From positions 1-64,000 of IMG/VR virus record IMGVR_UViG_3300012944_000024: a stretch of 64,000 bases of DNA; one strand, 5' to 3'. Origin of the DNA: a virus. Numbering within the stretch: position 1 is the stretch's first letter; each line of letters begins with the position of its first letter. The notes under the pieces are model-generated. The model was not told the DNA's origin. It saw only the letters and a program-made list of their open reading frames with translations, and did no database searches. A program made the translations under genes and the position numbers. Shown here in pieces: positions 498-60,660 of the stretch.

Positions 498-764
498 CTA
501 TGCCTGGGAACCCGGGTTCCCAGCAAAAGGGTCGCGATGGATATGACCAAGCGCGAAGCGCGCAACGTGCTCGCGCACCCGACCCGAGTCGCACTTGCGC
601 CGGAGCGGGAAGGCGACCGCCTTGCAGGCCGGGTGCTCGCAGGAGAGCTCAATCACCTGCTCCTCCCACCGCCCCTCCTCGGCGTCGAAGACGCGCGGCT
701 CGTAGCGCCCCACCACGTGCGGAGCCATGTCGGGCCGGTACTCGAGCTTCTTGTCGTTGCTCAT
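498..764 (-). CDS. Hypothetical protein
   Basis: ATGA overlap with upstream gene; ends GNPGSQA, encoded by the 16-bp palindrome plus GGCATAG. Confidence 0.75.
   Translation of the reverse strand: MSNDKKLEYRPDMAPHVVGRYEPRVFDAEEGRWEEQVIELSCEHPACKAVAFPLRRKCDSGRVREHVARFALGHIHRDPFAGNPGSQA
506..521. repeat. 16-bp palindrome GGGAACCCGGGTTCCC copy 1
   Basis: Exact; in CDS tail (GNPGS); 1 nt from GGCATAG box. Confidence 0.98.
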
Positions 765-1054
765 AGCGGCGCCTGCCCCCCCATCGCGTCCCAGTGCTTG
801 TGGTGCTCCTCCGCGCACGGGCGGCAGAGCGGGATGGGGCGGTTCGGATCCTCTCCCTGCCCGTCCCAGGGGTAGGCGGTGCGCGAGGGCTCGAGCTGGA
901 TGTCCTGGTCTCGGCACTGGTAGGTCGCGTCGAGCCCCGCGTGGGTCGCGCAGTGCTGGCAGACCCGTTTCGGCGGACCGAGTAGGAGCTCACGGAACCG
1001 CCGGTGCGCGCCCTCGAAGTCGAGCGGCTGGGAAGCGGGGAGGATCAGGCCCAT
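761..1054 (-). CDS. Hypothetical Zn-binding protein
   Basis: CQHC...LCRPC motifs; coupled to neighbours. Confidence 0.7.
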   Translation of the reverse strand: MGLILPASQPLDFEGAHRRFRELLLGPPKRVCQHCATHAGLDATYQCRDQDIQLEPSRTAYPWDGQGEDPNRPIPLCRPCAEEHHKHWDAMGGQAPL

Positions 1055-1134
1055 TCGTCCAGCCACCCGTAGAGCACCCAGCAAAAACACGCCACCCACG
1101 TGCCCACCGCGAACATCCCCATCGGGTCATCCAT
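1045..1134 (-). CDS. 29-aa hydrophobic peptide
   Basis: MDDPMGMFAVGTWVACFCWVLYGWLDEWA; TGATG overlap with upstream stop; fills the gap exactly. Confidence 0.5.
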   Translation of the reverse strand: MDDPMGMFAVGTWVACFCWVLYGWLDEWA

Positions 1135-1526
1135 CACGCGGCCCGCTTGCGCGCCCGCTTGCGCGCCCGCTTGCGCGCGTTGCGGGTGCGGCGATCAAGC
1201 TCCTGCTTTCGCATCGCCCCCTCTGCCCTCCACCTCGGCCCGCTCGTGTGAAACGCCAGCCAACTCACACGATACGTCTTGCCCCCATCCTCATCGGCGC
1301 GCTTCTCGATCGCCCAGGTGCGCGAGCGCATCCGCAGCAGCGCGATCGCGTAGAGGAAGTACTGCGGCTCTCGCTCGCCCTTTCGGAAGCGGTAGTCGAC
1401 CGCGCCCGCGGCGTGCAGCTTGGAGCGCGCGATCCAGATCAGCCACCCCGCGGCCCTCGGGCCCTCGATGCGTACGCGCTGGCGCTGCGCCCAGATCCCC
1501 TGCACGTCGAAACTCGGCGGCTTCAT
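1134..1526 (-). CDS. Hypothetical basic protein
   Basis: ATGA overlap; C-terminal (RKRA)x3 from a 12-bp tandem repeat. Confidence 0.7.
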   Translation of the reverse strand: MKPPSFDVQGIWAQRQRVRIEGPRAAGWLIWIARSKLHAAGAVDYRFRKGEREPQYFLYAIALLRMRSRTWAIEKRADEDGGKTYRVSWLAFHTSGPRWRAEGAMRKQELDRRTRNARKRARKRARKRAA

Positions 1527-1792
1527 CGCGGCGCCAATGGAGCGGCGCGAAGCTCAAGACGAATCTCGACAATCTGCTTCTCGAGCGCGACCACCTTGCG
1601 CTCCGCCCCCTCGGCCCTCGCGAGCGCGTCGCGCAGGGCGTCGCTGTAAAAGACGACGAGCGAGGTGATCGCATTGTGCCCGGTCGCGGCGCTGTCGCCG
1701 TGCCGAGAACGGAGCCCGACGCCGACCTGCGCCTCGATCGCCTCGATCGCCGCGCGCACCTGCTCGCCACTCGTCGGCTTCTCGTCTCCCAT
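1523..1792 (-). CDS. Hypothetical coiled-coil protein
   Basis: 89-aa ORF; GGCATAG box 9 nt upstream. Confidence 0.7.
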   Translation of the reverse strand: MGDEKPTSGEQVRAAIEAIEAQVGVGLRSRHGDSAATGHNAITSLVVFYSDALRDALARAEGAERKVVALEKQIVEIRLELRAAPLAPR

Positions 1793-1801
1793 GCCCGCCC
1801 G

Positions 1802-1981
1802 CTATGCCTTGTTCTTCGCCACCCACTTGCCGATCTTGCTCTTCGGCTTGACCTTCTGGGGCAGGTGCTTCGTCTTGCCGCGCGACGCGTCGTTGAACTC
1901 GTCGACGACGCCCTGCTCGATCTCCCCGCGCGCGGCTGCGGCGTTCATGTAGCGCTGCTGACTTATGCTTTTATAGGGAAT
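1802..1981 (-). CDS. Small basic phage protein (MPxKS..QQRYM type), apparent ATT start
   Basis: (I/M)PYKSISQQRYMNAAAARGEIEQGVVDEFNDASRG; GGAGGAGG upstream of ATT. Confidence 0.6.
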   Translation of the reverse strand: MPYKSISQQRYMNAAAARGEIEQGVVDEFNDASRGKTKHLPQKVKPKSKIGKWVAKNKA

Positions 1982-1985
1982 GGGA

Positions 1986-2453
1986 TCACCCTCCTCCCGC
2001 AGGCGGCTTGTCCGTCGGGGTCTCGTGCTGCCGGCCGAGCGCTTGGAGCTGCGAGCGCATCGCCGACCCGAGCAGGCTCTGAAAGAGGCTCTGGGGGATG
2101 CCGGCCGACGCGGCGAACCGCGCGAGCTCCAGGGTGAAGTTGCCAACCCCCTCGACGGCAGCCCGGTAGAACCGCTCCTGCGGGCCCGACAGGCGCATGA
2201 ACTGGTCGGGCGCGGCGTGGAAGGTGTGGCCCTCCTCGAGCTCCACCACGGGGGTGGAGCGGGCATGCTCGTACGCCTCGGCCTTCTCGACCTTCGGCTC
2301 GTAGACGTGCCCCTCGCCGTCGAAGAAGCGCGCCACGCGCCCGACGGTGCCGGATCGGATGTGGATCACCCACGCCTGCTCCTGCACCAGCCCCCTCCAC
2401 CAGTCGATCGGGGTCATGGTCGGTTGCTCGTCGCTCATCGGGGCGGTCCTCAT
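1986..2453 (-). CDS. Hypothetical protein
   Basis: 155-aa ORF, ATGA overlap. Confidence 0.75.
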   Translation of the reverse strand: MRTAPMSDEQPTMTPIDWWRGLVQEQAWVIHIRSGTVGRVARFFDGEGHVYEPKVEKAEAYEHARSTPVVELEEGHTFHAAPDQFMRLSGPQERFYRAAVEGVGNFTLELARFAASAGIPQSLFQSLLGSAMRSQLQALGRQHETPTDKPPAGGG

Positions 2454-2857: not shown

Positions 2858-4845
2858 TTCGAGTGCCGGATGATCTGACCCTTGGCGATCCGCGCCATCG
2901 CCCACGCCGCGTGCTTCGGTACGAGCTCGATCCCCACCACCTCATCCCAGCCCGCTTGCAGCGCACCAATGATTTCACTTCCGGCTCCGGAAAACGGTAC
3001 GAGCAGGCGCCTCGGCTTGCCGTCCGCGCGCGGCGGCGGGAGGAGCATGCGGGCGAAGTAGCGACAGAGGTCGATCGGCTTGAGCGTGCTGTGTCCGTTC
3101 TTCGCGCGCCCTTGGCGCGAACCGTCCCGCATGGCACCAACGCCATGCGGGACGGTCTCGAAATTCTCGAGCCCCCGGTCGCGCTCCTCGCGCGAGACCT
3201 TTGATGTGAAGAAGAATCGGCTCGCACCTCCTCGGTCGCCGCGAGCCGTGTCGGTGCTGTCGACGCCTCCGAACATCCCCCCGGGATAGTCGGGTCGGTG
3301 CCTCCCGCCCCCCGACATCCCCGGCCGGTCCCCACTCTGCAAGTCGAGCAGGCGCACCGGGCAGCCCTCGACGCACTCGTACGCGTCGATCGTCTCCTTC
3401 CCATTGACTCCGTAGCCGGCGTCGGGCGTCCCCACCGGGTACGTCCCACGACCATGCATCCCATCCAGCGCGCCTCGGTTCTTGACCCCGTTGCGCTTGA
3501 CCGCGGTCCCCGTCTTGACCACGCGCTCCCCCACCCTCACGCAATCGGGTGCGTGCGATAGCACCACGTTCGCCGGCCACCTCCCCTTCACCTTCTTGCC
3601 CGCGTAGCCGGTGACGTTCTTGGGAGCGATCGAGGCTGGACTCGAACCATCGTTGCCCGCGGGAGCGTTGAACCGTTCAACGCTCCCGATGCGGCTCGCC
3701 TCGATGTCGAGCCCACCCACCCCATGGGTCACCGCGTTGTCCGCGATCGTCCCGCGATGCGGCTTGCTCACCAGCAGCAGGGGCTCGTAGTCAGGGGCTA
3801 AGTCCGAGCTTGCGACCTCTGATGTAACAAGAGCGACCGCAGAAGACGCGAGGGTGAACTCGAGTCCAGCAGCGGCGACGGCGAACGATGCGACCGCAAG
3901 CGAGGCACTCGGCGTCATGCCACGTCCGCTCGTCGCGACCTCGATGATGAGTTCTGGCGTGATCTTCGACAGTGAGGAGTTCAAGGTTCTCAATGCGGTT
4001 GTCAGACTTGATGCCGTTTCGATGGTGAACGTGCTCTCTCGTCTCAAGATCTCGTTCAAGGTGTCGAGCCATGACGACACGATGCTCAAGCTCGTAGGCA
4101 CCGTCGAATCGGACCGCGACGTAGCCATCACTCCGAACAAATCGTCCGGTGAACTGCACTGTTGCACGGCATCCCATAGAACAGAACCGAGCGGTGCGAG
4201 CGCGTCTCGACTTGACGACGAAAGCCTGTCCGCAATTTTCGCAAGTGAGCTCAATTGGCATGCAACTTCCGTCAGCTTGTGAGCCAACGATACCACGATC
4301 CCCTTCAGATCGAGCGGCTTCTGGACCATCTCGAGTATTTCCCACGCCGGCTTGAGCGCTGTCCCCTGCCCATCCCACCGCCTCGCCTCTTCTGAGATCG
4401 CCGCGCCCTTGTCGGTCATCCCATAGTGAGGACCACCCAACGCGGGACTCTGACTCACCACGGAGGTGGCGCGGTCGCGCCACCTCCCCCGCTTCTTGTC
4501 GAGCTCCTTCGCGATGTCGAGCGACTTGGGCCACCCGCTCGCGTAGAGCCACATGCAGACGTCGCACGGCAAAAAGCCCGCGTCCTCCACGTTGACCGCC
4601 ATCCGATGGAACGTCCGCGTGCCGCCGAAGAAGAACGCGAACGCCCCCGGCCTCAGGACCCGCAGCACCTCGACGAACGCGTTGACGCTCGGGACGTCGT
4701 AGTCCCACTTGACCCCGCCGCTGCCGTGCATGAACTCGAGACCGTAGGGCGGGTCGGCGAACGCCGCGTCGAAGCTCTCCGGCTCCATCTCGCGCAGCAC
4801 CCGGCGCACGTCCCCGACGACGATCTCGTACGGGCGACCGCTCAC
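2854..4845 (-). CDS. DNA methyltransferase (beta-class N6A/N4C) with ~180-aa in-frame insertion
   Basis: FADPPYGL catalytic motif, [50 protein letters not shown] motif; GTGA overlap with ParB-like gene. Confidence 0.9.
3791..4261 (-). CDS. HNH endonuclease nested in an alternative frame of the methyltransferase
   Basis: [10 protein letters not shown]...FCSMGC, DGYV...EHRVVM...[19 protein letters not shown], second CxxC...FCGRSC; GGAAG upstream of ATG. Confidence 0.9.
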
Positions 4846-5510
4846 TTGCGCCGCTTGCCGCCGAGCAGCTCGAGCACCACGTCGCCCGTCCCCCGCTTGC
4901 TCGTGCGCGCCTTCTCCTCGAGCTTCTCCTTCACCGCGTCGCGCGTCTTCTTGTCCTTGAACTCGAGCCGCAGGGTCGCGGTCCCCACGATCGTCTCGGT
5001 CTCCTCGGTGATCCTGGGGGGCTCGGAGAACTTCATGTACCGCGCGTAGTCGTCCTCCTCGAACCCGAGCATCTCCTTCTCCTCGGGCAGCACCGGGGAG
5101 GTGTGGGCGATGTCCTCGAGCATCTCGCCGACGAGCTTCGCGATGAACTCTCCCTCCACGTTGTTGAGGGCGATGTTCAAGATCTTCGCCTCCCGATCGA
5201 TGAGGTCGAGCACCACGCACGGCAGCCGGGGGGTCGCGACGTTGTCCTCGATGCAGATCTCCCGCACCGCCTTGACCCGCTGGTGTCCCCCCACGATCAC
5301 CATCGGACCGTGCGCCTTGCTGAAGCGCTGGATGACGAGGTTCTCGAGAAACCCATTCTTCCGGATCCCCTGCTTGAGCGCGTCGAACTTGTAGGGCGAG
5401 ATCGAACGCGGATTGTACGCGGCAGGTTGCAGCTCTTGCACCGCCATCATCACCACTGATCGAACCTCGAACGGTTGCAGCACCTGCGCGACTGTCTTTG
5501 ATCGGTTCAT
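4842..5510 (-). CDS. ParB/Srx N-terminal domain protein
   Basis: LQPAAYNPR...[12 protein letters not shown]...[10 protein letters not shown] (ParB box I/II-like). Confidence 0.85.
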
Positions 5511-5989
5511 ATGTGCACCCATCGAACCCTCGTAACGATCTTGGAGATCGCCCCTTGTCGCACGCCAAACCGTTCGGCAAGCGTCTTACGTGACTCCCCG
5601 GCCTTAGCAGCAGCGCGGATCTCCAACACCTGTTCGTCGGTCAGCTTGGCGAGATGATGCCCAACCCCTGCCTTGCTATGGCGTCGACCCTTCTTCATCG
5701 AATCGTGGACGTTGTCCTTCTGCGTTCCGACGAAGAGATGTTCGGGGTTCACGCACCGCGGAGTATCGCAAGTGTGCAGGACAAGTAACCCAGCCGGCAC
5801 TGGACCCCTATGCATCCACCACGACACCACGTGCGCGCGATTCGACCTGCTGCGCTTCGTACCCGGGATGAATGCGTAGAAGAAACCGTACCCGTCCTTG
5901 TCCAGACCCCCAGTCCAGAGCCAGCACCCGTCACTCTTCTCTACGTGCGTGAAAAACCGGATCCTCGGTTCGATTGTTCTGGGCGCCAC
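5507..5989 (-). CDS. HNH endonuclease with C-terminal HTH
   Basis: CWLWTG..DKDGYG, AHVVSW, VLHTCDTPRCVNPEHL..GTQKDN, KLTDEQVLEIR. Confidence 0.92.
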   Translation of the reverse strand: MAPRTIEPRIRFFTHVEKSDGCWLWTGGLDKDGYGFFYAFIPGTKRSRSNRAHVVSWWMHRGPVPAGLLVLHTCDTPRCVNPEHLFVGTQKDNVHDSMKKGRRHSKAGVGHHLAKLTDEQVLEIRAAAKAGESRKTLAERFGVRQGAISKIVTRVRWVHI

Positions 5990-6006
5990 GCCTCCCCCTA
6001 TGCCCC

Positions 6007-6022
6007 GGGAACCCGGGTTCCC
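6007..6022. repeat. 16-bp palindrome copy 2
   Basis: Exact; intergenic after ruvC; 2 nt from GGCATAG box. Confidence 0.98.
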
Positions 6023-6027: not shown

Positions 6028-6576
6028 CTAGGCGAGCGAGAGGAACGGCAGACCGAGCTCCGAGAGCCCCGCGTTGGCCACGACGAACGCGTCGACCTGG
6101 TCGCCGTCGGCGAACGGGGCACCATGGTCCCAGATCGCCTGATGGGTCACACGCTTCACGTCTTCGCGTGGGAGCTTGCCCAGGATCAGCTTGCGCGCGC
6201 TCGACGCCACCACGGGGCGCAACGTGCGCCCGTAGGTGAATAGCTCGACCCGGCAGACTCCCCCTAGCTCCGCGAGCCTGGTCACGCTGCTCGAGTGCTT
6301 GGAGAAGGCATACCCCTCTACGAAGGTGTGCTGGGCGCGCTTCTCGAGGACGAAGTTGCGCGCCCACCCGGAGATCTTGATCAAGCGCCGGTACTGCCAG
6401 GCGAGAGCGTCAACCCCCGTCTTGACCAGCGCGTCGTCGCCCCCGACGTACGTTTCGAATCGTAATGTCAGCCAGTCGCCCAGCTCCCAACCTTGCGGGA
6501 TGAAGCAGGCGGCGGGCGCAGTGAGCGAGAGGTCGAACCCCACGATCCCGCCGAGCGAACGGACGCGCCTACCCAT
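6028..6576 (-). CDS. ruvC: RuvC-like Holliday junction resolvase
   Basis: VGFDLSLT, FVEGY, LAELGGV, DQVDAF acidic motifs. Confidence 0.85.
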   Translation of the reverse strand: MGRRVRSLGGIVGFDLSLTAPAACFIPQGWELGDWLTLRFETYVGGDDALVKTGVDALAWQYRRLIKISGWARNFVLEKRAQHTFVEGYAFSKHSSSVTRLAELGGVCRVELFTYGRTLRPVVASSARKLILGKLPREDVKRVTHQAIWDHGAPFADGDQVDAFVVANAGLSELGLPFLSLA

Positions 6577-8530
6577 CGACCACCCGCGCGGTCGAGTGCT
6601 TCCCGTCGCTCACGATCTCGATCCGCCCCGGCAGCGCATCCAGCACGCTCGCGTGGTGGGCGATCACGATCCCCTGCCCGAACCCCGCCCGGCCGAGCAG
6701 ACCGGGGAGGTGGGAGGCGAGGGCCCGGCGGTTCTCGCCGTCGAGGGCGCCGAACAGCTCGTCGAGCATCGCGACCCCCCAGCCGGCCATCCGGTCCTGC
6801 CGGAGCCACGCTGACGCGCCCACCTGGAAGGCGAAGCCGGCGAGGTCGTCGGCCCCCCCGCTCCTCTCGCTCGGCTCGAGCTCAAGCTTGTTGGTGAGCT
6901 GCGCGCCCCTCTCCGCCCCGCACCTCGCGCACTCCCGCACCCTGCGCGACGCGGGGAACGCGGCCCCGCACCCGCTGCACTGCGCTGCCAGCCCCGCGGT
7001 CTCCCGGCTCCACACGACCTTCACGGAGAGCTCGATGCCGCTGACCGCCAGGACGTCCTGGTTGGCGCGGTCCTCGATCTCCGCCAGCGCCCCCTCGGCC
7101 ATCCTGCGTTGCGCCCCGCCCTTGCCGAAGATCGCCGCCCCTGCCGCGGCCACCCGCGCGGCCCGTTCGAGCTGGACGAGCTCCTCGTCGATGGTGGCGA
7201 TCTGCACGCCCCGCGCCTCGATCGCCTGGACCGATCCCGATAGCTGGGTGTGCAGGCGCCGCGCGCCCTCGAGCAGCACCTCCACGTTCGCCGCCTCGGT
7301 TGGGTCGTAGGTTCCCGTGGGGGCGCCGAGCTTCGCGTGCTTCTCCTTCGAGACTCGCAGCCGCCGCGCCTCCTCGCGCAAGTCGTCGAGCCGCTGGGAG
7401 TCGCGTCGCCGCACCCGCAGCGCCTCCTGGGCGAGTAGGTGCTCCTGGTGCTTCGCCTCGTACTCGGCCCCCGTGGCCTCGTCCTCGCTCTTGTCGAGCG
7501 CCGCCTGGGTCAAGTTGGCCGAGGTCTCCGAGACCACGAACGCCTGCGCGGGGCACGCCTTGCCGGCGATCGGGCAGACCCCGTCGAAGTGGCCGAGCGA
7601 GACGTTCATGCGCGCGCGGACCCGCTCGCCGATCGCCAGGCACCTCGCCCCCAGCCGCTGCAGCTCCCGGCCCAGCTCACCTTCGCTCGCCTCGAGCGCG
7701 TCGGTCTTCGGGGCCACGTTGCGCGCCGCGAGCTCGCGCCCCTGCGCGATGATCGCGTCGTAGCGGACGGCGTCCTCGGCGAGCCGGGCGCGCTCCGCGC
7801 CCTTCTCCTTCTCCCATCGGAACTGGCCCAGCTCCCTCTCCAACCTCTCGACCTCCCCCACCTGCACAGCCGCGCGCCCCGCGACCTCCTCGCCCGTCTT
7901 GCACCCGTGCCGCTCGAGCTCCCATCGCACCACCGCCTCGGCGTCCGCGCGCTCTCGCCGCTTGCCCTCGACGCGCGTCGAGAACTCCGCCAGCACCGCC
8001 TGGGCGTCGTCCTCGCACCGCTCGAGCGGCTCGAGCCGGATCCACGACGAGACCGTCTCCATCCTCGTGCCCGGATCCATCGAGACCATCCGGGCCATCT
8101 CGCGCTGGCGCATGTAGCAGAGCAGGAAGTCCTCGCGGTTGAGGCCGATGATCTGCTCGATCTGTCCTTGCGCCTCGGCGTTCATACTCGCGCCCTCGGG
8201 GTTGCCGGGCGGGAAGAGGGTCACCCGCTCGGGATGCGCGGCCGAGAAGGTCCGCACGATCCGGTGCCCGCTCGAGAGGTTGAGCTCCACCTCCAGACCC
8301 TTCTCCCCGCGTGTGATGAGGTCGGCCTTGCGCCGGCAGTCCTCGGGCATCCGGCCGTGCAGGCACCAGTCGATCGCGCCCACCAGGCTCGACTTGCCCA
8401 GGCGGTTCGAACGGTCCACCGCGACCGTCGAGGTCGCGACGAGCGCGTAGAAAGTCGAGCGCAGCGCAAGCTCCTGATCGCCCTTGAAGCACCGCCAGTT
8501 GCGCAGCTTGAGGCGCTCGATCGTGATCAC
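6569..8530 (-). CDS. sbcC: SbcC/Rad50-like (gp46-like) ATPase
   Basis: LKLRNWRCF, SNRLGKSS Walker A, coiled coil with central Cys pair, SGG signature, MLDELFGALD Walker B/D-loop, VIAHH. Confidence 0.9.
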   Translation of the reverse strand: MITIERLKLRNWRCFKGDQELALRSTFYALVATSTVAVDRSNRLGKSSLVGAIDWCLHGRMPEDCRRKADLITRGEKGLEVELNLSSGHRIVRTFSAAHPERVTLFPPGNPEGASMNAEAQGQIEQIIGLNREDFLLCYMRQREMARMVSMDPGTRMETVSSWIRLEPLERCEDDAQAVLAEFSTRVEGKRRERADAEAVVRWELERHGCKTGEEVAGRAAVQVGEVERLERELGQFRWEKEKGAERARLAEDAVRYDAIIAQGRELAARNVAPKTDALEASEGELGRELQRLGARCLAIGERVRARMNVSLGHFDGVCPIAGKACPAQAFVVSETSANLTQAALDKSEDEATGAEYEAKHQEHLLAQEALRVRRRDSQRLDDLREEARRLRVSKEKHAKLGAPTGTYDPTEAANVEVLLEGARRLHTQLSGSVQAIEARGVQIATIDEELVQLERAARVAAAGAAIFGKGGAQRRMAEGALAEIEDRANQDVLAVSGIELSVKVVWSRETAGLAAQCSGCGAAFPASRRVRECARCGAERGAQLTNKLELEPSERSGGADDLAGFAFQVGASAWLRQDRMAGWGVAMLDELFGALDGENRRALASHLPGLLGRAGFGQGIVIAHHASVLDALPGRIEIVSDGKHSTARVVDG

Positions 8531-10273: not shown

Positions 10274-10990
10274 TCACACCTCGAAGATCTGAAAGCTCGG
10301 ACGGTTGCGCTCCTCGCCGTGCGTGAGGCGCGCGAGCGAGCCGGCGACGTGGACCCGCACCCCGTTGGGCGCCGTCCAGACCTGCCGCTCGTGGTAGTGG
10401 CCCCCCAGGACGAGCCACTCGGGCCGGCACGCCTCCCAGGGGAATGGGACGTCGCGCCCTCGCGGCATCTCCCTACTCTCCTCGCCGGGCGTGATGCCGG
10501 GATACTGAAGGTGCGTGGCGACGATGGTCGCGCGCGCGTCCGACGTCTGCAGCGACGCGAGCATGGGGGTCGGGGCGTAGGGGCGGTTCAGCGACGGGTA
10601 CGGCAGCCCGATCACCAGCGTCCCGTCGGGCATCTTGAACCGGTCCGCCCGATCGAAGACGTAGACCGAGAACGAGGCCAACCCCTTGAGGGGCGAGAGC
10701 ATCGTCGTCCCCTCCCCGTCCTCGGCGACGTCGTGGTTACCGGCGACCCATCCGGATGTGATGTCGTGCGTGGCGAGCTCCGTCGCGACGTCCACCGCGA
10801 GCTCCGCGCACCGGAGCACGATGCTCCCTGAGTCGGGATCGGCGAGGTCGCCGGTGAAGAGGTAGAGCCCGCACTTCTCGTCGATCGCGGCGCGCACCGT
10901 CTGCTCCATCGCGCGCGCGACGTCGTCGAATCGTCGGAACCCTGCTGTTGAGTGATCAGCATGAGCATCAGAGCAATGTAGGATCTTCAT
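10274..10990 (-). CDS. sbcD: SbcD/Mre11-like metallophosphoesterase nuclease
   Basis: MKILHCSDAH, FTGDLAD, VAGNHD, ATH, LGGHYH, AGSL. Confidence 0.92.
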   Translation of the reverse strand: MKILHCSDAHADHSTAGFRRFDDVARAMEQTVRAAIDEKCGLYLFTGDLADPDSGSIVLRCAELAVDVATELATHDITSGWVAGNHDVAEDGEGTTMLSPLKGLASFSVYVFDRADRFKMPDGTLVIGLPYPSLNRPYAPTPMLASLQTSDARATIVATHLQYPGITPGEESREMPRGRDVPFPWEACRPEWLVLGGHYHERQVWTAPNGVRVHVAGSLARLTHGEERNRPSFQIFEV

Positions 10991-11910: not shown

Positions 11911-12797
11911 GACCCGATCCCTTGCATCAGCTCCTCCGATGCCTTGATCCCACGCTTGGTGATGAGGTTGAGCGTCCGGAGCACCGCGAGCGCGCCCGAA
12001 AGGCTCCCGCTCTTCTTGTACCCGGTCGCGTCGACGATGAAGTCGACATCGATCGCGTTGGGGTAGGAGGACACGATCGCCTGCAACACCGTCGCCCCCA
12101 TCGTCCCGACCCGATCGCACCAGAACTCGAGCAGCTTGGCGCCAGTCGGGATCTTCGCGTGAGCGGGGACGTGCGGGATCCCCTTCGCGGTGATGGAGAT
12201 GTGCTTCCCATCCCCCTCGATCCACCCCGCGGCGCGCAGCCGAGCGAGCGCACCCGAGAAGCTCCCGCTCCTGGAGTAGCCGGTCAGGATGGAGAGCTGC
12301 GCGTCCGTCGTCGGCTTCGGCGCGCGCTGCGCGAGGACGACGAGCATCTTGGCGTCCATCGGGCTGCGCGGCTCCGTCCCGCTTCCCGACGCGCCGAAGC
12401 TGAGCAGACCGTTGGCGGACTCCTTCTTCGCGTCCTCCTCGGCCCACTTGTCGAGCGTCGCCCCCACGACCTTCTTCGCGATCTCCGCCGGCCCGCCGTT
12501 GATCGTGCGCAGATCCGGCGGGTGCCCGACGAGTAGCTCGAGCCGACGCACCTGCAACTCGAGCCGCGCGACGCGCCCTTCGAGCGGGTCGGTCGGGTCG
12601 GCGTACCCGAGACGCACGCGCTTCGATGACGGCTCCGGCAGCACGATCCCCTCGCGCTTGACGAGCTCGTCGACCATGTCGGCCGCCTGCGCCATCCCCT
12701 CGGCGCGCTCGCGCTGCCCATTGGTCGCGTAGACCGCTGCGGCCACGCGGATGCGTTTGGCCAGGTCGGTCTCGGGGGTCTTGCGCGAGCGACTCAC
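11907..12797 (-). CDS. Protein with two tandem winged-helix-like repeats
   Basis: Repeated TGYSRSGSFSGALARLR / TGYKKSGSLSGALAVLR. Confidence 0.7.
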   Translation of the reverse strand: MSRSRKTPETDLAKRIRVAAAVYATNGQRERAEGMAQAADMVDELVKREGIVLPEPSSKRVRLGYADPTDPLEGRVARLELQVRRLELLVGHPPDLRTINGGPAEIAKKVVGATLDKWAEEDAKKESANGLLSFGASGSGTEPRSPMDAKMLVVLAQRAPKPTTDAQLSILTGYSRSGSFSGALARLRAAGWIEGDGKHISITAKGIPHVPAHAKIPTGAKLLEFWCDRVGTMGATVLQAIVSSYPNAIDVDFIVDATGYKKSGSLSGALAVLRTLNLITKRGIKASEELMQGIGS

Positions 12798-13975
12798 CCG
12801 CCCACCACGTCGGCACGCGCCGCCACATCCACCCCAAACGCCGCCCGCACGTCGCGCTCCAAGGCGTCGAGCAGGTCCGGCTTCGCGCTCGTCAGAAACC
12901 GCTTCACCCCCTGCCACCGGTTGCCATCATAGCTGAGCCACCCCGTCCCCTGGATGACGCCCAGCTCCTTGCCGAGCTCGAGGAGATCGCGCGCGCGATC
13001 GAACCCCTCGGGCGTCCAGGCCCCGTTGCTGGTGCAGAAGTCCGCCTTCTCGACAACGTCCTGGCGCGCGGAAACCTTCGTCTTGTGGATCTCGACCAGG
13101 TGGCGCTCGCCGACGATGGGGCTCTTCCAGTCGTCCTCGACCTCGTGGATCATCTTCGCCGCCGAGACGCGCACGTCGAGCGACGCGTCGAAGTAGAGCG
13201 ACGACCCGCCCGTCGTCTTCCAGTCGCTGCCGAACTTGCGCGCCATCGCCGATGCGTCGCGGTCCGCGCTCTCGCGCGCGACGAAGAGGATCGAGCAGCC
13301 CGTCTTGTGCATCAGCGGGGTGAGCTGGTCGAGCCACGCCTTGTTGAGCGCCGCCTTGATCATCCCCGACGCCCCCCGGTACCCGTCGACACTCCCGTCC
13401 TTGGACTCAGCGGCGAACTTGCGGATCTTCTCCTGGATGTCGAGCGGGACGAGCTTGCCGATCGAGTCGACGACGAAGAGACAGGTCGTGTCGGCGTCGA
13501 CCTTGCCCTTGTCGCGCGCCTCCGCCAGCCCGAGCGCGATACGGCGCACGTCGTCGACCGCCTGCTCGTACGAGTCGGGGCGCGCGGCGATGAAGCCCGC
13601 GTCGTCGACGTATCGCCCGAGCATCGTCTCGAGCCATGGGGCAGGGGTAGTGCACTCCGCGTCGATCAGTGCGTACATGTGCCGACGCCGGAGAAAGGAG
13701 AGCCCGATCCCGTTGGCAAAATTCGTCTTGCCCTGCCCGCTGGGTCCGTGAACCATCGCGACCCGGTCGGTCGGCCACCCGCCCACGCGGATCTTGAAGT
13801 CGACGCCCGGGAAGATCGTCGGCACCGCCCGCACCCGACGGAGCACCTCGCGCGCCTGCCGAAAGCTCTTCGACGACTTGGCGATCTCCGCAAACACCTT
13901 CGCCCCCGGGCGCTTGTCGGGCACCACGGGGGCGAAGGCTTCTACCGTCTCTACCGGGGGTCTGCGTCGCGCCAT
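12794..13975 (-). CDS. recA: RecA/UvsX-like recombinase
   Basis: VGGWPTDRV, GPSGQGKT Walker A, IDAE, VVDSIG Walker B, TTGGSSLYFDAS, KTKVS. Confidence 0.93.
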   Translation of the reverse strand: MARRRPPVETVEAFAPVVPDKRPGAKVFAEIAKSSKSFRQAREVLRRVRAVPTIFPGVDFKIRVGGWPTDRVAMVHGPSGQGKTNFANGIGLSFLRRRHMYALIDAECTTPAPWLETMLGRYVDDAGFIAARPDSYEQAVDDVRRIALGLAEARDKGKVDADTTCLFVVDSIGKLVPLDIQEKIRKFAAESKDGSVDGYRGASGMIKAALNKAWLDQLTPLMHKTGCSILFVARESADRDASAMARKFGSDWKTTGGSSLYFDASLDVRVSAAKMIHEVEDDWKSPIVGERHLVEIHKTKVSARQDVVEKADFCTSNGAWTPEGFDRARDLLELGKELGVIQGTGWLSYDGNRWQGVKRFLTSAKPDLLDALERDVRAAFGVDVAARADVVGG

Positions 13976-13991: not shown

Positions 13992-15337
13992 GTGAAACGC
14001 ACCCACTCCTCACGCCCGGGGCTCGTCATCACCGCATTGCGAATGAAAGGGATGTCGTCCCCCGGATCGCCCGCATTGCCATGGTCGGCTGCGGGCGGAG
14101 GGACGTAGGGCGCCTCCTGGGTGCGCGTGCGCATCGGCGGGGGGAGCGGGAGGGGGTCGGCCTCGATGATGTAGACCTTCCCGCACGCCGAGCACTTCGG
14201 GTCGCGCATCTTCATCACGTGCGTGCACGGGCCCTGCGGGGTCGGCGCGTTGCACATGACCTCCTCGTCGGGGTCCTCCATCGGCAGCGCGGGCGGGAGG
14301 GCGGGACGTCCGACCTCGGGAACCCGGGTTCCCGCCGGCTCCGCCGCACCCGCGTCCTTCATCGTCTTCCACTCGGCGCGCGCCTTGGCAAAGAACTGCT
14401 CGAACGGCAGCTTGACCAGCACCTGCCGCTCGAGATTGGCCATGTGGGTATTGGGGTCGTGGCGGCGCGCGAGCTCGTCGAAGCTGGGGGGAGGGTCGTG
14501 GACGATGAGCTTCTCGATCATCGGGGTCATCCGGATCTGCTCCATCCGGATCGCGTCGTACTTTTTGTCGAACGCGATCCCCTCGGCTGGGTTGTGCTCG
14601 AGCTGGATCGCGTACGGGTACTTGGCGATGTTGCCGCGCTCGCCGATCGCCTTGCGCGCGTGCGCGATGACCTCCTGGATCTTCAGGCCGACCAGGTTGG
14701 GTTCGATCGCCACCTGGATCCCCTTGGTGGGCTCGGCGTTGTCGACGGCCGCGAACGCGTACTCGAGCTTCGCCTTGCTGTCCTGCCTGTAGGCGACGTT
14801 CGGCGTGAAACCGCGCTGGTAGACCGGCCCGCCGCGCTCCTTGGGGATGAGGATCAGCTCCCTCTTCTTCTCCTCGCTCATCTTCTTGTCGCCGAAGAGG
14901 CCGCACATCCCGCCCGCGTGCAGGATGACCGTCTTGGATGGGTCGTCGCACTCGTACTTGAAGAGCGGCTCGCGCCAGTCGAGCCGCTTGGCCATGATCT
15001 CGGCGCGGATCCACTCGAGCATCTTGCAGTGCCCGCAGATCTCCGGCGGGCGGTCGCGCACCGTGCGCGTCTCGCGGTCGTAGAAGTTCTGCACCTGCAA
15101 GAGGTCCTCGTCCTCCCAGCAAACGAGCGGGTCGCCCCAGACCTCCACCTTCGCGACTCCCTCGACGTTGCGCCGCACCACCTTGAGAAACCGGTGCCGC
15201 CAAAGCGCCAGGATGGACGCCTGGGTGTGAAACCAGAGCGTGATGGAGTAGGGGTTCTTGTCCTTCCAGCCCTTGAGGTAGTTGCGCTTCCCGCCGCGCG
15301 CGGAGTGGCCTTGAAACTCGTCCCATGTCATCGGCAT
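13985..15337 (-). CDS. Putative single-stranded DNA-binding protein (gp32-like)
   Basis: Position between RecA and PolB; Cys/His cluster; acidic Pro-rich tail with DDIPF. Confidence 0.6.
   Translation of the reverse strand: MPMTWDEFQGHSARGGKRNYLKGWKDKNPYSITLWFHTQASILALWRHRFLKVVRRNVEGVAKVEVWGDPLVCWEDEDLLQVQNFYDRETRTVRDRPPEICGHCKMLEWIRAEIMAKRLDWREPLFKYECDDPSKTVILHAGGMCGLFGDKKMSEEKKRELILIPKERGGPVYQRGFTPNVAYRQDSKAKLEYAFAAVDNAEPTKGIQVAIEPNLVGLKIQEVIAHARKAIGERGNIAKYPYAIQLEHNPAEGIAFDKKYDAIRMEQIRMTPMIEKLIVHDPPPSFDELARRHDPNTHMANLERQVLVKLPFEQFFAKARAEWKTMKDAGAAEPAGTRVPEVGRPALPPALPMEDPDEEVMCNAPTPQGPCTHVMKMRDPKCSACGKVYIIEADPLPLPPPMRTRTQEAPYVPPPAADHGNAGDPGDDIPFIRNAVMTSPGREEWVRFTA
14318..14333. repeat. 16-bp palindrome copy 3
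   Basis: Exact; in SSB-like linker (GTRVP). Confidence 0.98.
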
Positions 15338-19336: not shown

Positions 19337-20266
19337 TCAACTCCCGATATCCAGCCCAAACTGCGCGGTCCTCTCCATCGCGACCTTCGCGTATGCCGGA
19401 TTGGACTCGATGAGCGTCGCCGACCTCCCCAGGCTCACCGCCGCGCGCCCCGTCGTCCCGCTCCCACCGAACGGGTCGATCACGTGGTCGCCCGGTCGGC
19501 TCCCCGCGAGGATGCACCGGCGCGGTAGCTCGATCGGAAACGTCGCCGGGTGACCGTCAGGCGACTTGTCGAGCTGGATCTCCCACACCGATCGAGCGTT
19601 GCGACCCGCCTCGGGGCCTGCTGAGAGGTAGAGACCATTGTGCGACCCCCGCCCCGGCGCCTTGCTCGGGACGGGACCCACGACGGTGCGGTGGTGATTA
19701 CCCCAGAGCGCGGTCTCGCGGATCGCGTCGGCGTCGTAGAAGTAAACCTCCGACTTAGCCAGCAGGAACACGTGCTCGTAGTCGAGCGTCGGACGGTCAC
19801 GGACGCTCTCGGGGAGGCAGTTCGGCTTGCGCCACAGCACGTCCGCCCGCAAGTACCACCCGTCCGCGCGGAGCGCAAACGCCACCATCCACGGGACGCC
19901 AACCAGATCCTTTCCCTTGAGACCACTCGGAGTCGGACTCCGAGTCCTCATCGCCCGCGCGGGATTCTTCTTGTCCGCCGCGCGCCACGATCGGTTGCCG
20001 CTCGCGTAGGTGTCGCCGAGGTTGAGCCAGATCGTCCCATCATCGCGAAGCACCCGCCTCACCTTTCGGAAGACGCCCACGAGCTCGTCGACGTACTCCT
20101 CGACCGACTTCTCAAGGCCGATCTGCCCGGCGTGGTCGTAGTCGCGCAACCCCCAGTACGGGGGGCTGGTGACGCAGCATCGGAAACGAGCGGGGGAGAG
20201 CTGCGAGAGTACGTCCCGGCAGTCACCGACCAGGACGATCGACTCCGGGGGCCTTCGTTGCCTCAC
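19337..20266 (-). CDS. N4-cytosine DNA methyltransferase, SmaI/XmaI/Cfr9I-like (predicted CCCGGG)
   Basis: CCVTSPPYWGLRDY, SGNRSWRAADKKNPARAM, PESVRDRP, HPATFP, IDPFGGSGTT; specificity inferred from recalled family sequence. Confidence 0.88.
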   Translation of the reverse strand: MRQRRPPESIVLVGDCRDVLSQLSPARFRCCVTSPPYWGLRDYDHAGQIGLEKSVEEYVDELVGVFRKVRRVLRDDGTIWLNLGDTYASGNRSWRAADKKNPARAMRTRSPTPSGLKGKDLVGVPWMVAFALRADGWYLRADVLWRKPNCLPESVRDRPTLDYEHVFLLAKSEVYFYDADAIRETALWGNHHRTVVGPVPSKAPGRGSHNGLYLSAGPEAGRNARSVWEIQLDKSPDGHPATFPIELPRRCILAGSRPGDHVIDPFGGSGTTGRAAVSLGRSATLIESNPAYAKVAMERTAQFGLDIGS

Positions 20267-25688: not shown

Positions 25689-26020
25689 CGCCGATGCCTC
25701 AGCGGGTCACGCGTACCGTTCCGGAAGACCGGCCTCCCCACCCCTAGCTCATGCCCTGCCATCTGCACCGCGTTGCAGATCTCCTCGGGCAACCTGTTCC
25801 GACCCCCACCCTCGAGAGTGCGCCTCCACGACTCACGAAGATCGAACCGGAGCGTGCGCCGGACCATCTCCCCGCGCGCGGTGTCTTCGACGATCGTGAT
25901 GCTCAACTGCTCCCCGAACTCCTCGGATCTGACGAGCGCACGAAGACGCGTACCTCCCGGTCTCGGATCCCGCAATGCCACCTCGATCGCATCCTGCAGA
26001 CGAAAGAGGGTCGCGCTCAT
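25685..26020 (-). CDS. Hypothetical protein
   Basis: ATGA overlap with primase stop. Confidence 0.7.
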   Translation of the reverse strand: MSATLFRLQDAIEVALRDPRPGGTRLRALVRSEEFGEQLSITIVEDTARGEMVRRTLRFDLRESWRRTLEGGGRNRLPEEICNAVQMAGHELGVGRPVFRNGTRDPLRHRR

Positions 26021-27431: not shown

Positions 27432-27680
27432 TCAGCCTCCGTCCGTGTCGTCCTGGGAACCCGGGTTCCCAGCCTCGAGCCCCAGGATCCGGACCGCCTT
27501 GAGGAAGTCGCGCACGAGCAACTCGCTGCGCGCGATCGCCCGCTTCAGCTCGACGGCGATCTTCCACGCCTTGTCCCAGTCGCTCTCGGCGTGCGCGAGC
27601 TGCAGATCCTTCTCACACCGCAGCACCTGGCGGAACGAGCGCGTCATGTCCGCGCCGATCTTCTTCGCAGTGCGCGCCAT
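27432..27680 (-). CDS. Hypothetical protein
   Basis: 82 aa, TGATG overlap; tail GNPGS from palindrome. Confidence 0.65.
   Translation of the reverse strand: MARTAKKIGADMTRSFRQVLRCEKDLQLAHAESDWDKAWKIAVELKRAIARSELLVRDFLKAVRILGLEAGNPGSQDDTDGG
27455..27470. repeat. 16-bp palindrome copy 6
   Basis: Exact; CDS tail (GNPGS). Confidence 0.98.
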
Positions 27681-45657: not shown

Positions 45658-45673
45658 GGGAACCCGGGTTCCC
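45658..45673. repeat. 16-bp palindrome copy 10
   Basis: Exact, extends to 22 bp; 9 nt after tape measure stop. Confidence 0.98.
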
Positions 45674-49290: not shown

Positions 49291-49306
49291 GGGAACCCGG
49301 GTTCCC
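49291..49306. repeat. 16-bp palindrome copy 11
   Basis: Exact; 8 nt after HNH stop. Confidence 0.98.
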
Positions 49307-56265: not shown

Positions 56266-56281
56266 GGGAACCCGGGTTCCC
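56266..56281. repeat. 16-bp palindrome copy 12
   Basis: Exact, extends to 22 bp; 10 nt after capsid stop. Confidence 0.98.
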
Positions 56282-58859: not shown

Positions 58860-58933
58860 GCGTCGATTCCTCCAGGGTTCTCGCGTCGCGTACCCCCGCG
58901 CGCGTCTGCGCGGGGGCTTGTCCTGTCTGGGCT

Positions 58934-58949
58934 GGGAACCCGGGTTCCC
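58934..58949. repeat. 16-bp palindrome copy 13
   Basis: Exact; 11 nt after stop at 58961. Confidence 0.98.
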
Positions 58950-58960
58950 AGGTCGCCCGA

Positions 58961-59755
58961 TCAGAAGTTCGGGCTGGGCGCCTCGAGCACCGCGTTCAGG
59001 TCGACGCCGCCCGATCCGGCGGGCGCGCCGCCGTTGCTATTCGGGATCGAGCCCGACGCGATCCCGAGCTTCACGCGCACCTGCGTGACCACGTCGGCGA
59101 TGCGAAACTGCAGCTGCATCTTGTTGGCCGAGAGGTTCGCGTTGAGCGTCGTGGCCGGCGCGCCGCCCGGCACCAGCACCGCGCACTTGCCCACGTTGGT
59201 GCCGGCGAGGATCTCCGCCTCGAGCATCGAGACCACCCCAGGGGCCGCGTTCGCGCCCGGGGCCGCCGCGCCCGCGTACTTCGCGGGGATCAGCCCGACC
59301 CCGGTGCCCGGCACGACGCTGAGCGTGAGCTCGACCACGTCCTGCTTCTGCACCGCGTAGTCGAGATCCACGTCGTTGTAGGCGTCGGTCGTCAGGAACA
59401 TCAGGTCGCCGCTCGGCGAGATCCCCACCGTCCCGGTCGTCGGGGTCGTCCCGTAGGGGGTCTTGGCGGTCAGCTCCCCGAGCGTGCCCGTCGAGGTCGA
59501 TGCGTCCTGGGCGCGCGCGTAGACGCGCGAGATGCTCCTCGCCTTCGCGTCGTCGGGCAGGGTGATGACCTTGCAGGTCGCCACCCCCACGTACGGGTTG
59601 GCGGCGCCGCCGAATGCGTTCTGCCGGCGCAAGCCGACTTCGCTCTGGCGGAGGAAGGTGCCGAACCCGACCAGCCGCAGCATGTCGGCGAGCGTGTTCG
59701 CGCCGGCCGCGTTCAATCGCGCGACGAGTCCCTGAGCTGCGGTCGAGATGGTCAT
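58961..59755 (-). CDS. Virion structural protein (head-associated?)
   Basis: 264 aa Gly/Thr/Ala-rich; AGGAG RBS. Confidence 0.65.
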   Translation of the reverse strand: MTISTAAQGLVARLNAAGANTLADMLRLVGFGTFLRQSEVGLRRQNAFGGAANPYVGVATCKVITLPDDAKARSISRVYARAQDASTSTGTLGELTAKTPYGTTPTTGTVGISPSGDLMFLTTDAYNDVDLDYAVQKQDVVELTLSVVPGTGVGLIPAKYAGAAAPGANAAPGVVSMLEAEILAGTNVGKCAVLVPGGAPATTLNANLSANKMQLQFRIADVVTQVRVKLGIASGSIPNSNGGAPAGSGGVDLNAVLEAPSPNF

Positions 59756-59829
59756 TCGAATCGTCTCCTGGTCGTTGTGACGCGAGGCTAGACCTCAGAG
59801 CTGGCGCTGCGCGAAAAAGCCGTCAGCCT

Positions 59830-60258
59830 TCACAGCTGACCCGACGCAAAATACTCGATCTGCCCCGATCCCTGGACCTCGAGCAGCGTGATCCAGAAGC
59901 CGTCCGGCGCGTCCGCCTCGTGGAGGAAGATCCCATTGCTCGGCAGGACCGCGACGATCGACCCGCCCGCGGGGTTGCGGTAGGTAATGCGGAACTGGAA
60001 GAGCCCCGCCTTGACCCGCATGTAGACCGTGTCGGCCTGGGTGACATCGTCGGTCGCCCCGACCCCGCTGAGCGCGACGAACGCGCTCGGCGAGTTGACG
60101 TTGCGCGTCTTGGCCCCCGTCGAGACGGGCGAGGGCTTTGGGCACGGGGCGCCGAGCTGCCCGAACGGCACGCTCGTCGTCGCGCTCGGGAAGCCGGGCG
60201 CCTCGCACCCCGCGGGGGGCGCCTCGGTGAGCGTGCCGGAGATCTGGACCGTCCCCAC
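59830..60258 (-). CDS. Virion structural protein
   Basis: 142 aa beta-rich ORF in head module. Confidence 0.65.
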   Translation of the reverse strand: MGTVQISGTLTEAPPAGCEAPGFPSATTSVPFGQLGAPCPKPSPVSTGAKTRNVNSPSAFVALSGVGATDDVTQADTVYMRVKAGLFQFRITYRNPAGGSIVAVLPSNGIFLHEADAPDGFWITLLEVQGSGQIEYFASGQL

Positions 60259-60262
60259 GCGC

Positions 60263-60616
60263 TCACTCGCTCGTGTCGGCGGTCGGCTCGTTGGGGATGT
60301 CGCCCACCGGGCCCCCGTCCTCGACGTCGGAGTTTTTCGCGGGCGCGGCGGTGGAGCCGCCGAGCTTGAAGGGCTTGTGCTTCTGGCCCGCCGGGGTCGT
60401 GCCGATCATGCCGCCGCGATCGCTGGGAGGATCCATGTGCAGGGTCCGGCCGCCGTCGGCAACGCTGTCCGCGTTGAAGTCGGGCGGCCCTGACTTCTGG
60501 GGGCGGTCGGGGCCGCGCTGGTTGGTCATCCCCGCGCTCTTGCCCGCGTCGGAGTTGCCGACCGCGCCGCTCTTGCCGTCGGGGGAAAATGGGTTGGACT
60601 TGCCGTCTGCGTTCAT
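60263..60616 (-). CDS. Disordered protein with KHKPFKL motif
   Basis: GAGGAG RBS; low complexity. Confidence 0.6.
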   Translation of the reverse strand: MNADGKSNPFSPDGKSGAVGNSDAGKSAGMTNQRGPDRPQKSGPPDFNADSVADGGRTLHMDPPSDRGGMIGTTPAGQKHKPFKLGGSTAAPAKNSDVEDGGPVGDIPNEPTADTSE

Positions 60617-60644
60617 GGGGGTGCTCCTCGAACTCGAGTCTACC

Positions 60645-60660
60645 GGGAACCCGGGTTCCC
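60645..60660. repeat. 16-bp palindrome copy 14
   Basis: Exact; 5 nt after stop at 60666. Confidence 0.98.

Follow-up and report, generated by a model that had tools for sequence, protein, structure and literature searches.

Short DNA sites that recur over a whole phage genome are known from very few systems. The understood case is that of the stoperators of Cluster A mycobacteriophages, asymmetric sites of 13–14 bp that are oriented with transcription and read by a monomeric two-domain immunity repressor (PMC9283540, PMC6550527). The other case, which is not understood, is a 17-bp dyad repeat of Cluster O mycobacteriophages, TGTTCGGNNNCCGAACA, which has a 3-bp spacer, occurs in more than 30 copies per genome, is the same in all five phages of the cluster and has been assigned no function (PMC4351075). 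Among the ParB-related systems, KorB, which acts on the OB sites of plasmid RK2, and BisD possess an N-terminal CTPase domain and form CTP-dependent sliding clamps (PMC11790492, PMC12409273). The linear plasmid-prophage N15 has four dispersed centromere sites, IR1-4, and encodes SopA and SopB (PMC7205306, citing Ravin and Lane 1999). Here we analyzed a 64,000-nt stretch of viral DNA (in the following called the window), the first 64 kb of the 98,407-bp IMG/VR record IMGVR_UViG_3300012944_000024 (called G000; CheckV completeness 100%), and describe an iterated 16-bp palindrome, GGGAACCCGGGTTCCC. On balance, its copies are probably parS- or operator-like sites for a dimer of the phage-encoded protein 20263–21507 (named by its window coordinates), a binding and a role that we infer from genome comparisons and structure models.

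The iterated palindrome in G000 and related phages

Allowing for up to two mismatches, we found 14 copies of GGGAACCCGGGTTCCC in the window, all of them exact, compared with 0.05 expected from shuffled sequences; variants with one or two mismatches were not found there. These are the 14 copies, at identical coordinates, that had been listed in the first-pass annotation of this DNA. It had also listed partial copies at 24460 and 16504; both exist as matches with three mismatches, the second starting at 16502. The complete genome contains 20 exact copies and one variant at 79455. The dyad is often extended to ctGGG...CCCag, yielding an 18-mer in 12 copies and a 20-mer, gcTGGGAACCCGGGTTCCCagc, in seven. 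An assembly artefact, raised as a possible objection in the first-pass annotation, is excluded because L242, a metagenome contig assembled independently, matches G000 without a difference over two of the sites, and the same core is found in many copies in several other assemblies. Among the sequencing runs, one DNA run was listed, with a fraction of 0.05 of the sampled words, and no RNA run.

The minus strand holds 129–130 of the 132–133 genes called in G000 by a codon-bias gene caller. On this strand, eight of the window sites lie within called open reading frames (ORFs), in protein linkers or tails, and are read in all three frames, as GNPGS (five sites), GTRVP (two) and WEPGFP (one). The other six are intergenic, 5–11 nt beyond the stop codon of the upstream gene, and both counts agree with those reported earlier.

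In IMG/VR, six further contigs (G001–G006) carry many copies of the core GAACCCGGGTTC. G001 (88.8 kb, 20 sites) is syntenic with G000, with proteins only 24–57% identical, and G002–G006 constitute a related group. The inner 14 bp are constant across G000–G006, and the outer arms change symmetrically between genomes (Table 1). In each of these seven contigs, dyad symmetry ends at the contig's own consensus of 20–22 bp and then drops to the background of 0.28; the palindrome is therefore a fixed word and not a stem of variable sequence. The motif of G001 is degenerate in a strand-specific manner, with a T at position 15 on the plus strand (...GGGTTCTC) in at least nine sites and never with the mirror change, suggesting a mutation bias or a constraint that depends on orientation.

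Ten further large relatives each have 13–26 copies of a palindrome of 16–24 bp. Searching via the conserved protein 56292–57701 (54–71% identity), we collected 15 relatives, none of which carried the G000 core. Most of these 20-kb loci had an iterated palindrome of their own, which was confirmed on whole genomes for G364–G369 and G371 (Table 1; the word of G364 is also written as cTGGAACTCGAGTTCCAg). Because this is a family-wide system, the observation is far stronger than could be seen in the first-pass annotation, which had not noted the coding on the minus strand, the change of word between related phages or the turnover of positions. G372 (72.8 kb, 77% complete) possesses the structural module of the family, while neither an iterated palindrome nor the replication/recombination module was found in this contig. 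Two further loci hold variants of the palindrome system. In L316 (IMGVR_UViG_3300046323_000673), the palindrome ATCCAATTGGAT is arranged in pairs 14 bp apart, with four pairs in 22 kb, and in L304 (IMGVR_UViG_3300015610_000633; 49% GC), a spaced repeat, CGTCTA-N6-TAGACG, occurs five times. We found no DNA similarity to G000 among deposited phages, and in the literature searched neither GAACCCGGGTTC in this sense nor a link between phage ParB-like proteins and dispersed palindromes.

Of the 92 sites in the seven contigs with the G000 core, 46 are intergenic (8.3 expected), 19 fall within the final 15% of a gene (12.3 expected) and 21 in mid-gene (62.9 expected); in another seven genomes, the intergenic share is 90 of 142. 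For 32 of 42 intergenic sites, the distance to the upstream stop is shorter than that to the next start (P = 0.0009). According to ortholog alignments, the intragenic sites fall in indel-rich linkers and tails, and reading frames are never broken by them. Within the family B DNA polymerase (PolB), G000 has VVGNPGSQR and G002 has DGTRVPSGK, a site at the same place in another frame, just ahead of the shared Q(S/G)DLF tail. Such sites held in other frames by orthologs, together with the location in indel-rich linkers and tails, argue for selection on the DNA and not on the protein, as had been proposed in the first-pass annotation.

The coefficient of variation of the spacing was 0.49–0.76 in all 11 genomes measured (0.60–0.76 in G000–G003 and 0.49–0.69 in seven others). 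Compared with random placement, P was 0.014 for G000, 0.025 for G001, 0.09 for G003 and 0.23 for G002. Of the 21 sites in G000, only 3 recur at the corresponding position in its sister G364 (after or in an orthologous gene); for G366 and G371, which have a common word, it is 2 of 18. Hence, the number and evenness of sites are kept while single sites come and go, which argues for a function of the whole chromosome and against gene-specific operators or terminators.

A candidate reader encoded next to PolB

We surveyed 79 IMG/VR loci anchored on PolB and scored a locus as positive if an exact 12-mer palindrome was iterated, with a three-copy threshold. A gene of the same family as 20263–21507 (called A2) was located immediately upstream of PolB in 31 loci. 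Iterated palindromes were present in 19 loci, all with A2, and in none of the 48 loci without it (Fisher 1.6e-10). A2 was also present in 10 of 10 motif-bearing genomes whose contig spans the replication module. It was not found in G372, with its structural module and no palindrome, and five PolB relatives with upstream DNA and no A2 gene likewise lacked palindromes. A palindrome was found no more than about 250 bp from the 5′ end of the A2 ORF in 6 of 17 loci, where about 1.9 would be expected (P = 0.008).

The A2 family is rare and unnamed in a set of 5.8 billion proteins, and Pfam gives only weak zinc ribbons for it. With 23–37% identity, 20263–21507 is the fastest-evolving protein common to all module-bearing genomes. 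Three parts are seen in the A2 alignment. The first is a zinc ribbon with invariant CxxC...CxxCG, the second a helical domain whose pattern is W.LG..L.E...WK.R...GK.AYK.FE.F..AELG....A..LMDVA..F, and the third a beta domain at the C-terminus. The segment of the putative recognition helix reads ...GRKYAQDLQRIA... in G000 and ...GRKQAQDLMRIQ... in G364.

In an AlphaFold2 model, the helical domain reached a predicted local distance difference test (pLDDT) score of 80–89. Residues ~183–318 match 6t1f, 1vz0, 4umk, 6y93, 7o0n and 7ng0 with Z 8.6–10.8 and a root-mean-square deviation of 2.7–3.5 Å over 97–113 residues. These are DNA-binding domains of ParB, Spo0J and Noc, including complexes with parS and NBS. 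The next structural families, the DNA complexes of SopB and P1 ParB, follow at about Z 5, and thereafter Z is below 4. The top matches of Foldseek were the same ParB/Spo0J/Noc proteins, with weak E-values of 0.17–1. Judged by this model, 20263–21507 would carry a helix-turn-helix (HTH) DNA-binding domain of the ParB/Spo0J/Noc fold. Neither Pfam nor NCBIfam gave a match to the ParB_N CTP-binding domain (GERRxRA), and the N-terminal part of the protein is the zinc ribbon. It is thus predicted to be a carrier of a ParB-type DNA-binding domain and not a ParB-CTPase.

Residues 183–414 were modelled as a symmetric homodimer with a score of 0.66, against 0.01 for the best control; 20 of 30 solved homo-pairs attained this mark, as did 1 of 23 single chains. 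Three runs had at least 80% of the contacts in common, with a pLDDT of 72 for the partner. A dimeric phage protein as reader, proposed in the first-pass annotation, is consistent with this predicted homodimer and with the parS/operator format of the sites, a fixed dyad whose length suits a dimer and whose symmetry stops at the consensus; this format is not shared with the asymmetric stoperators also named there. Similarity between motifs showed no relation to PolB identity (r = −0.01) but a weak one to the sequence identity between A2 DNA-binding domains (partial r = 0.30, permutation P = 0.006).

Three candidate readers had been named beforehand, among which 20263–21507 is the one that fits, although the label DUF3102 attached to it is unsupported by Pfam (one member, E = 0.078). 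The ParB-domain protein 4842–5510 lacks an HTH, contains a nuclease-type DGxHR-like motif and was not found by BLASTP family clustering in G364 and G368, two near-complete genomes that bear a motif. As for the HTH proteins, 24972–25193 was not found in several relatives and the adjacent 25209–25688 was matched only in G002.

Several points weigh against 20263–21507 as the reader. Twelve A2-positive loci stayed under the three-copy threshold, among them L304 with its spaced repeat and two loci with two copies of a known motif. The co-occurrence of A2 and palindromes is partly confounded by phylogeny, the A2 loci being closer PolB relatives, and G372 as well as G003–G006 are incomplete contigs. 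A Z near 10 is possible by chance for helical domains, and the DNA-binding domain was not recognized by sequence in Pfam or NCBIfam. No covariation is left when only the narrower putative recognition segment is compared (partial r = 0.06, P = 0.30), and L327 and L333 have the same motif at only 31% identity of the DNA-binding domain. Palindromes of 20–24 bp are long for a single HTH dimer, and the stop-proximal placement (32/42) would also be explained by a role at the transcript level. In addition, PF17762 (HTH_ParB) gave nothing at the 20263–21507 gene in G000–G003 and G005, its sole weak match lying elsewhere (25251–25385, 11.4 bits), and a profile comparison of A2 with a bacterial ParB-like alignment (A1) returned a probability of 0.3%.

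With 20263–21507 as the reader, the 16-mer would be the core of an 18–20-bp site for a homodimer that combines a zinc ribbon, a ParB/Noc-type HTH domain and a dimerizing tail, without the ParB CTPase domain. Each phage of the family keeps about 13–26 sites, evenly distributed at approximately one per 3.5–5.3 kb. Selection apparently acts on the number and spacing of sites and not on particular genes, so that new sites would arise where they are least harmful, after stops or in linkers and tails in any frame, while old ones decay. The words differ between lineages, like those of operator/repressor or parS/ParB pairs. The role might be to mark or organize the whole phage chromosome in connection with the machinery by which the phage replicates and recombines its DNA. 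As concrete options, the sites might serve in silencing of the entire genome, as stoperators or KorB do, or in partition and compaction.

In G000, the candidate gene belongs to a replication/recombination module that includes several unknowns besides the genes in Table 1. The module is a T4-style recombination/replication set, inherited along with the palindrome system.

Table 1 Palindrome copies and genes in the window, and palindrome words of related genomes
Feature	Position	Strand	Remarks
Palindrome copy	506..521		C-terminal tail of ORF 498–764(−), read GNPGS
Palindrome copy	6007..6022		Intergenic, 5 nt beyond stop of 6028–6576(−)
Palindrome copy	14318..14333		Indel-rich linker of 13985–15337(−), read GTRVP
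Palindrome copy	16679..16694		PolB linker preceding QSDLF tail, read GNPGS; G002 ortholog: same place, other frame
Palindrome copy	22505..22520		Tail of UvrD_C-like gene 22392–23387(−); ~1 kb upstream of candidate reader gene
Palindrome copy	27455..27470		Tail of 27432–27680(−)
Palindrome copy	31877..31892		N-terminal part of SF2 helicase 30727–32181(−), read WEPGFP
Palindrome copy	32736..32751		Small ORF 32712–32894(−), read GTRVP
Palindrome copy	34903..34918		Strand-switch region, within weakly scored plus-strand ORF 34798–35352
Palindrome copy	45658..45673		Intergenic, 9 nt beyond stop of 45683–47650(−)
Palindrome copy	49291..49306		Intergenic, 8 nt beyond stop of 49315–49974(−)
Palindrome copy	56266..56281		Intergenic, 10 nt beyond stop of 56292–57701(−)
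Palindrome copy	58934..58949		Intergenic, 11 nt beyond stop of 58961–59755(−)
Palindrome copy	60645..60660		Intergenic, 5 nt beyond stop of 60666–60935(−)
Candidate reader	20263..21507	−	414 aa; zinc ribbon, predicted ParB/Noc-type DNA-binding domain ~183–318, C-terminal beta domain; directly upstream of PolB
Family B DNA polymerase (PolB)	16392..19169	−	Replication/recombination module; conserved neighbor of candidate reader gene
SbcC-like	6569..8530		Replication/recombination module
Mre11/SbcD-like	10274..10909		Replication/recombination module
RecA-like	12794..13927		Replication/recombination module
UvrD_C	22392..23387	−	Replication/recombination module
Primase	26017..27000		Replication/recombination module
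DnaB	27868..29310		Replication/recombination module
SF2 helicase	30727..32181	−	Replication/recombination module
ParB_N-only protein	4842..5522	−	GGHQR motif, no HTH; less likely reader
Word of G364 (sister of G000, 95 kb)			TGGAACTCGAGTTCCA, 24 copies
Word of G365			TTCGAAAAGCGCTTTTCGAA, 13–20 copies
Word of G366			TTGGAAACCCGGGTTTCCAA, 18 copies
Word of G371			GGAAACCCGGGTTTCC, 16 copies
Word of G367			ACCGCACGGCGCCGTGCGGT, 25–26 copies
Word of G368			ACGCCGGATCGATCCGGCGT, 15–19 copies
Word of G369			GTCGGTGATCGATCACCGAC, 15–19 copies
Outer arms, G000			ctG...Cag
Outer arms, G002, G003, G005			ggaC...Gtcc
Outer arms, G004			gacC...Ggtc
Outer arms, G006			ccgC...Gcgg

At two sites (498–534 and 5985–6006), the sense strand has GGCATAG after the palindrome and then a start codon 9–10 nt further on, an arrangement not seen at the other sites. 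Both ends of G000 (window positions 1–60, and 98348–98407) consist of the same tandem hexamer array of ACCCCG/ACCGCG units on the same strand; therefore, the assembly was broken inside this repeat, or the ends are redundant.

Alternative explanations and a similar site in Caldilineales

A link to restriction or methylation was rejected, with CCCGGG outside of the motif occurring at Markov expectation (75 observed, 72.8 expected). The N6_N4 DNA methyltransferase 19337–20266 (Pfam E = 4.6e-44) has no ortholog in G001–G006 and is therefore not a conserved partner of the motif. A LexA/Cheo box (GAAC-N4-GTTC) was also discarded, since the bacterial copies, which lie within genes, behind them or between convergent genes, do not precede SOS genes. 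A host repeat of the REP or HIP type was likewise rejected. In a search of one genome per prokaryote species, bacterial genomes gave only scattered hits, single per 8-kb stretch, 74 of 121 of them without flanking symmetry. This bears out the earlier assignment of the palindrome to the phage and not to its host.

Hairpins in RNA or single-stranded DNA, serving as factor-dependent terminators or attenuators, stabilizers of mRNA 3′ ends or processing sites that a sequence-specific RNA-binding protein would read, or as targets of SbcCD or RecA, appear unlikely to us as the function of the sites. About half or more of the sites stand just beyond stops, with the bias toward the upstream stop described above, and the module that accompanies the motif encodes proteins similar to SbcC, Mre11/SbcD and RecA. 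A stem of 7–8 pairs (6–8 of them motif pairs) with a CCGG loop is formed by the motif at local energies of −13 to −18 kcal/mol, but relative to shuffled sequences these are only z −1 to −3. The strand asymmetry of the G001 variants also fits an RNA, yet it produces an A-C mismatch in the sense RNA and not a G-U pair. All copies of a genome have the same sequence, without a covarying variable stem past the consensus, and Rfam gave no family at the gathering threshold. Intrinsic terminators (hairpin plus U-run) were ruled out, as on the sense strand no copy is followed by a T-run. Terminator-like calls were obtained for none of the five sites in 44–62 kb, while hairpin-plus-T terminators of unique sequence lie nearby (e.g., 57935–57906). 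Furthermore, 21 of the 92 sites are in mid-gene, including PolB, where termination would be harmful, and the positions do not follow the conserved order of genes. It seems highly improbable that the palindromes are very small selfish elements of REP or MITE type, copied by a trans-acting enzyme or by recombination without benefit to the phage. The identity within a genome, the lineage-specific word, the fast positional turnover and the placement just after stops do resemble REP elements. REP/RAYT elements consist of an imperfect palindrome with a conserved asymmetric tetranucleotide and have an associated Y1 (HUH) transposase. The phage palindromes, however, are perfect, orientation-free and without the asymmetric REP tetranucleotide, and no HUH/Y1 transposase-like match was obtained among the ~40 proteins scanned, which are not all of the genes. 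Moreover, the spacing, which in every genome is more regular than random placement would give, and the copy number near 13–26 argue for selection on distribution, and the orthologs hold a site at the same linker in other frames with intragenic copies that never break the frame.

At 57906–57935 on the minus strand, a canonical intrinsic terminator with a 13-pair stem followed by TCGTTTTTCT is located after gene 57993–58859; the phage therefore uses ordinary terminators, distinct from the palindrome.

The phage core GGAACCCGGGTTCC with the commonest G000 flanks, T...A (TG...CA), equals a site that, among the Chloroflexota sampled, is nearly restricted to the order Caldilineales; it was present in 30 of 56 genomes there (1–6 copies) but in only 2 of 301 across the phylum. 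Its density in Caldilineales is 1–6 copies per 3–10 Mb, compared with one per 5 kb in the phage. In these bacteria, an operon (L203:9137–13112, G009; about 20 further loci, e.g., L219, L221, L224, L232 and L244) encodes a 480-amino-acid protein with a C-terminal DnaA_N-like domain (P480), ParA, and a ParB-like protein of 540–600 amino acids. The ParB-like protein has HTH_ParB over the Pfam cut-off and a GERR motif; its best structural-sequence matches by profile are Spo0J and Noc, while a single-sequence search of PDB gave no match. Copies of the site, also written TGGGAACCCGGGTTCCCA, are found inside the ParB-like gene, 35–50 nt beyond its stop and in the first gene. The codons GGA ACC CGG GTT CCC at the site are invariant in 12 genomes, whereas conserved residues nearby use three or four synonymous codons. 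Presence of gene and motif coincide (27/3/3/23 genomes, Fisher 2e-9). A canonical ParB was present in each of five operon-bearing genomes that we checked, and a single perfect canonical parS in four of them; the operon is therefore a second, parS-like system. The site resembles a parS variant that has not been described and that may belong to a second replicon. For this phylum, which has been little studied, the finding may thus add a new parS variant and possibly another replicon or partition system.

The phage sites could mimic a centromere-like site of the host, with a host ParB-like protein, e.g., the long one of Caldilineales, loading onto the phage DNA for plasmid-like partition, for silencing or for titration of this host protein. 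The operon context, the invariant codons and the coincidence of gene and motif all favor such a host reader, as does the fact that the phages encode no ParA and, by sequence, no HTH_ParB. We nevertheless regard it as quite unlikely. Quite different palindromes are found in the sister G364 and in at least 15 other relatives, and the similarity of motifs is independent of the phylogeny of the phages; a host reader would thus need hosts of different orders for close phages, while the bacterial site is invariant across its order. The GC content of the phages is 64–71%, versus 44–59% for the Caldilineales loci, and no relative of the marker protein 56292–57701 was found in the 56 Caldilineales genomes. 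A metagenome scan with the 20-mer returned six contigs, none from a high-GC host with the ParB-like operon. Only 16,384 palindromes of 14 bp are possible, so that a chance match to some ParB-type site is plausible, and the outer arms are conserved within each phage past the bacterial core. Phage and bacterial proteins have no profile similarity, and homology of phage proteins to the Caldilineales ParB-like protein, ParA or P480 was not found even at E up to 10. The identity of the 14-mer in phage and Caldilineales may reflect a host link or coincidence.

In the Chloroflexaceae metagenome-assembled genome G008 (L208–L215), eleven long palindromes of the type CAGGGGnnTGGGGAACCCGGGTTCCCCAnnCCCCTG occur on nine contigs of 68–70% GC, one pair of them 72 bp apart. 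An ortholog of the long ParB-like protein was not found in G008, and these palindromes look like a REP-like hairpin family with the same apex.

Returning to 20263–21507 as the reader, a more far-reaching version is conceivable, which we put forward tentatively and with more doubt than belief. In a large family of uncultured phages with genomes near 100 kb, the undescribed protein encoded next to PolB, with a zinc ribbon, a ParB/Noc-type domain lacking the CTPase and a dimerizing tail, would load onto about 20 evenly spaced, lineage-specific palindromes. These would form a private 'address system' of the whole phage chromosome that separates self from non-self DNA for the phage's own replication and recombination or for silencing. 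Specificities would diversify like immunity groups, and the identity with the Caldilineales site would stem from a shared mode of recognition or from piracy of a host partition system.

Comparison with known systems

This family of large environmental phages displays dispersed sites in a clean form. Each genome has one perfect palindrome in about 20 even copies, the word changes from lineage to lineage, and just one candidate reader co-occurs with it, with a predicted ParB/Noc fold but no CTPase switch. It offers at least 18 natural protein-site pairs for studying how ParB-type domains change specificity, as well as a direct experimental handle of one protein and one 20-mer; we also suggest that such pairs might serve as orthogonal DNA tags.

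With the stoperators, these sites have in common that one short site is present in many copies genome-wide, in and between genes, that the reader, here a candidate, is phage-encoded, and that site sequences diverge between lineages along with this protein. In contrast to stoperators, the sites are perfect palindromes of 16–24 bp, and the candidate reader is a modelled homodimer of ParB/Noc type encoded next to PolB in a replication module. No integrase and no immunity or repressor cassette turned up among the proteins scanned, in which no dedicated integrase search was included. An asymmetric oriented site, a monomeric repressor and a temperate phage, as in stoperator systems, are thus not what we found. 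The Cluster O repeat is likewise a dyad with invariant arms, distributed genome-wide and mostly between genes or at gene ends. However, no reader was proposed for it, whereas here the word differs between lineages and a candidate reader gene co-occurs.

The spacerless palindromes of 14–16 bp read by Noc and ParB are similar to the phage sites, and NBS, which is ATTTCCCGGGAAAT, shares the CCCGGG centre. The model of 20263–21507 superposes on the Noc-NBS and ParB-parS structures (PDB 6y93, 6t1f, 4umk) at Z 10.2–10.8. The flanking half-site bases differ, and the phage protein has no detectable sequence homology to Noc and ParB, no CTPase domain and no ParA partner. KorB reads about a dozen sites and acts at a distance across the entire element, and the likeness consists in dispersed palindromes on a mobile replicon and a ParB-type HTH, for the phage that of the candidate. 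Unlike in KorB and BisD, neither sequence nor model shows a ParB_N domain in 20263–21507, which has a zinc ribbon in its place. In N15, palindromic sites of the ParB family (SopB) are likewise scattered around the phage genome and not clustered, while in G000 there are about 20 sites, and neither a ParA nor evidence of a plasmid-prophage state was found. The palindrome system described here therefore differs from each known case in symmetry, protein architecture or copy number.

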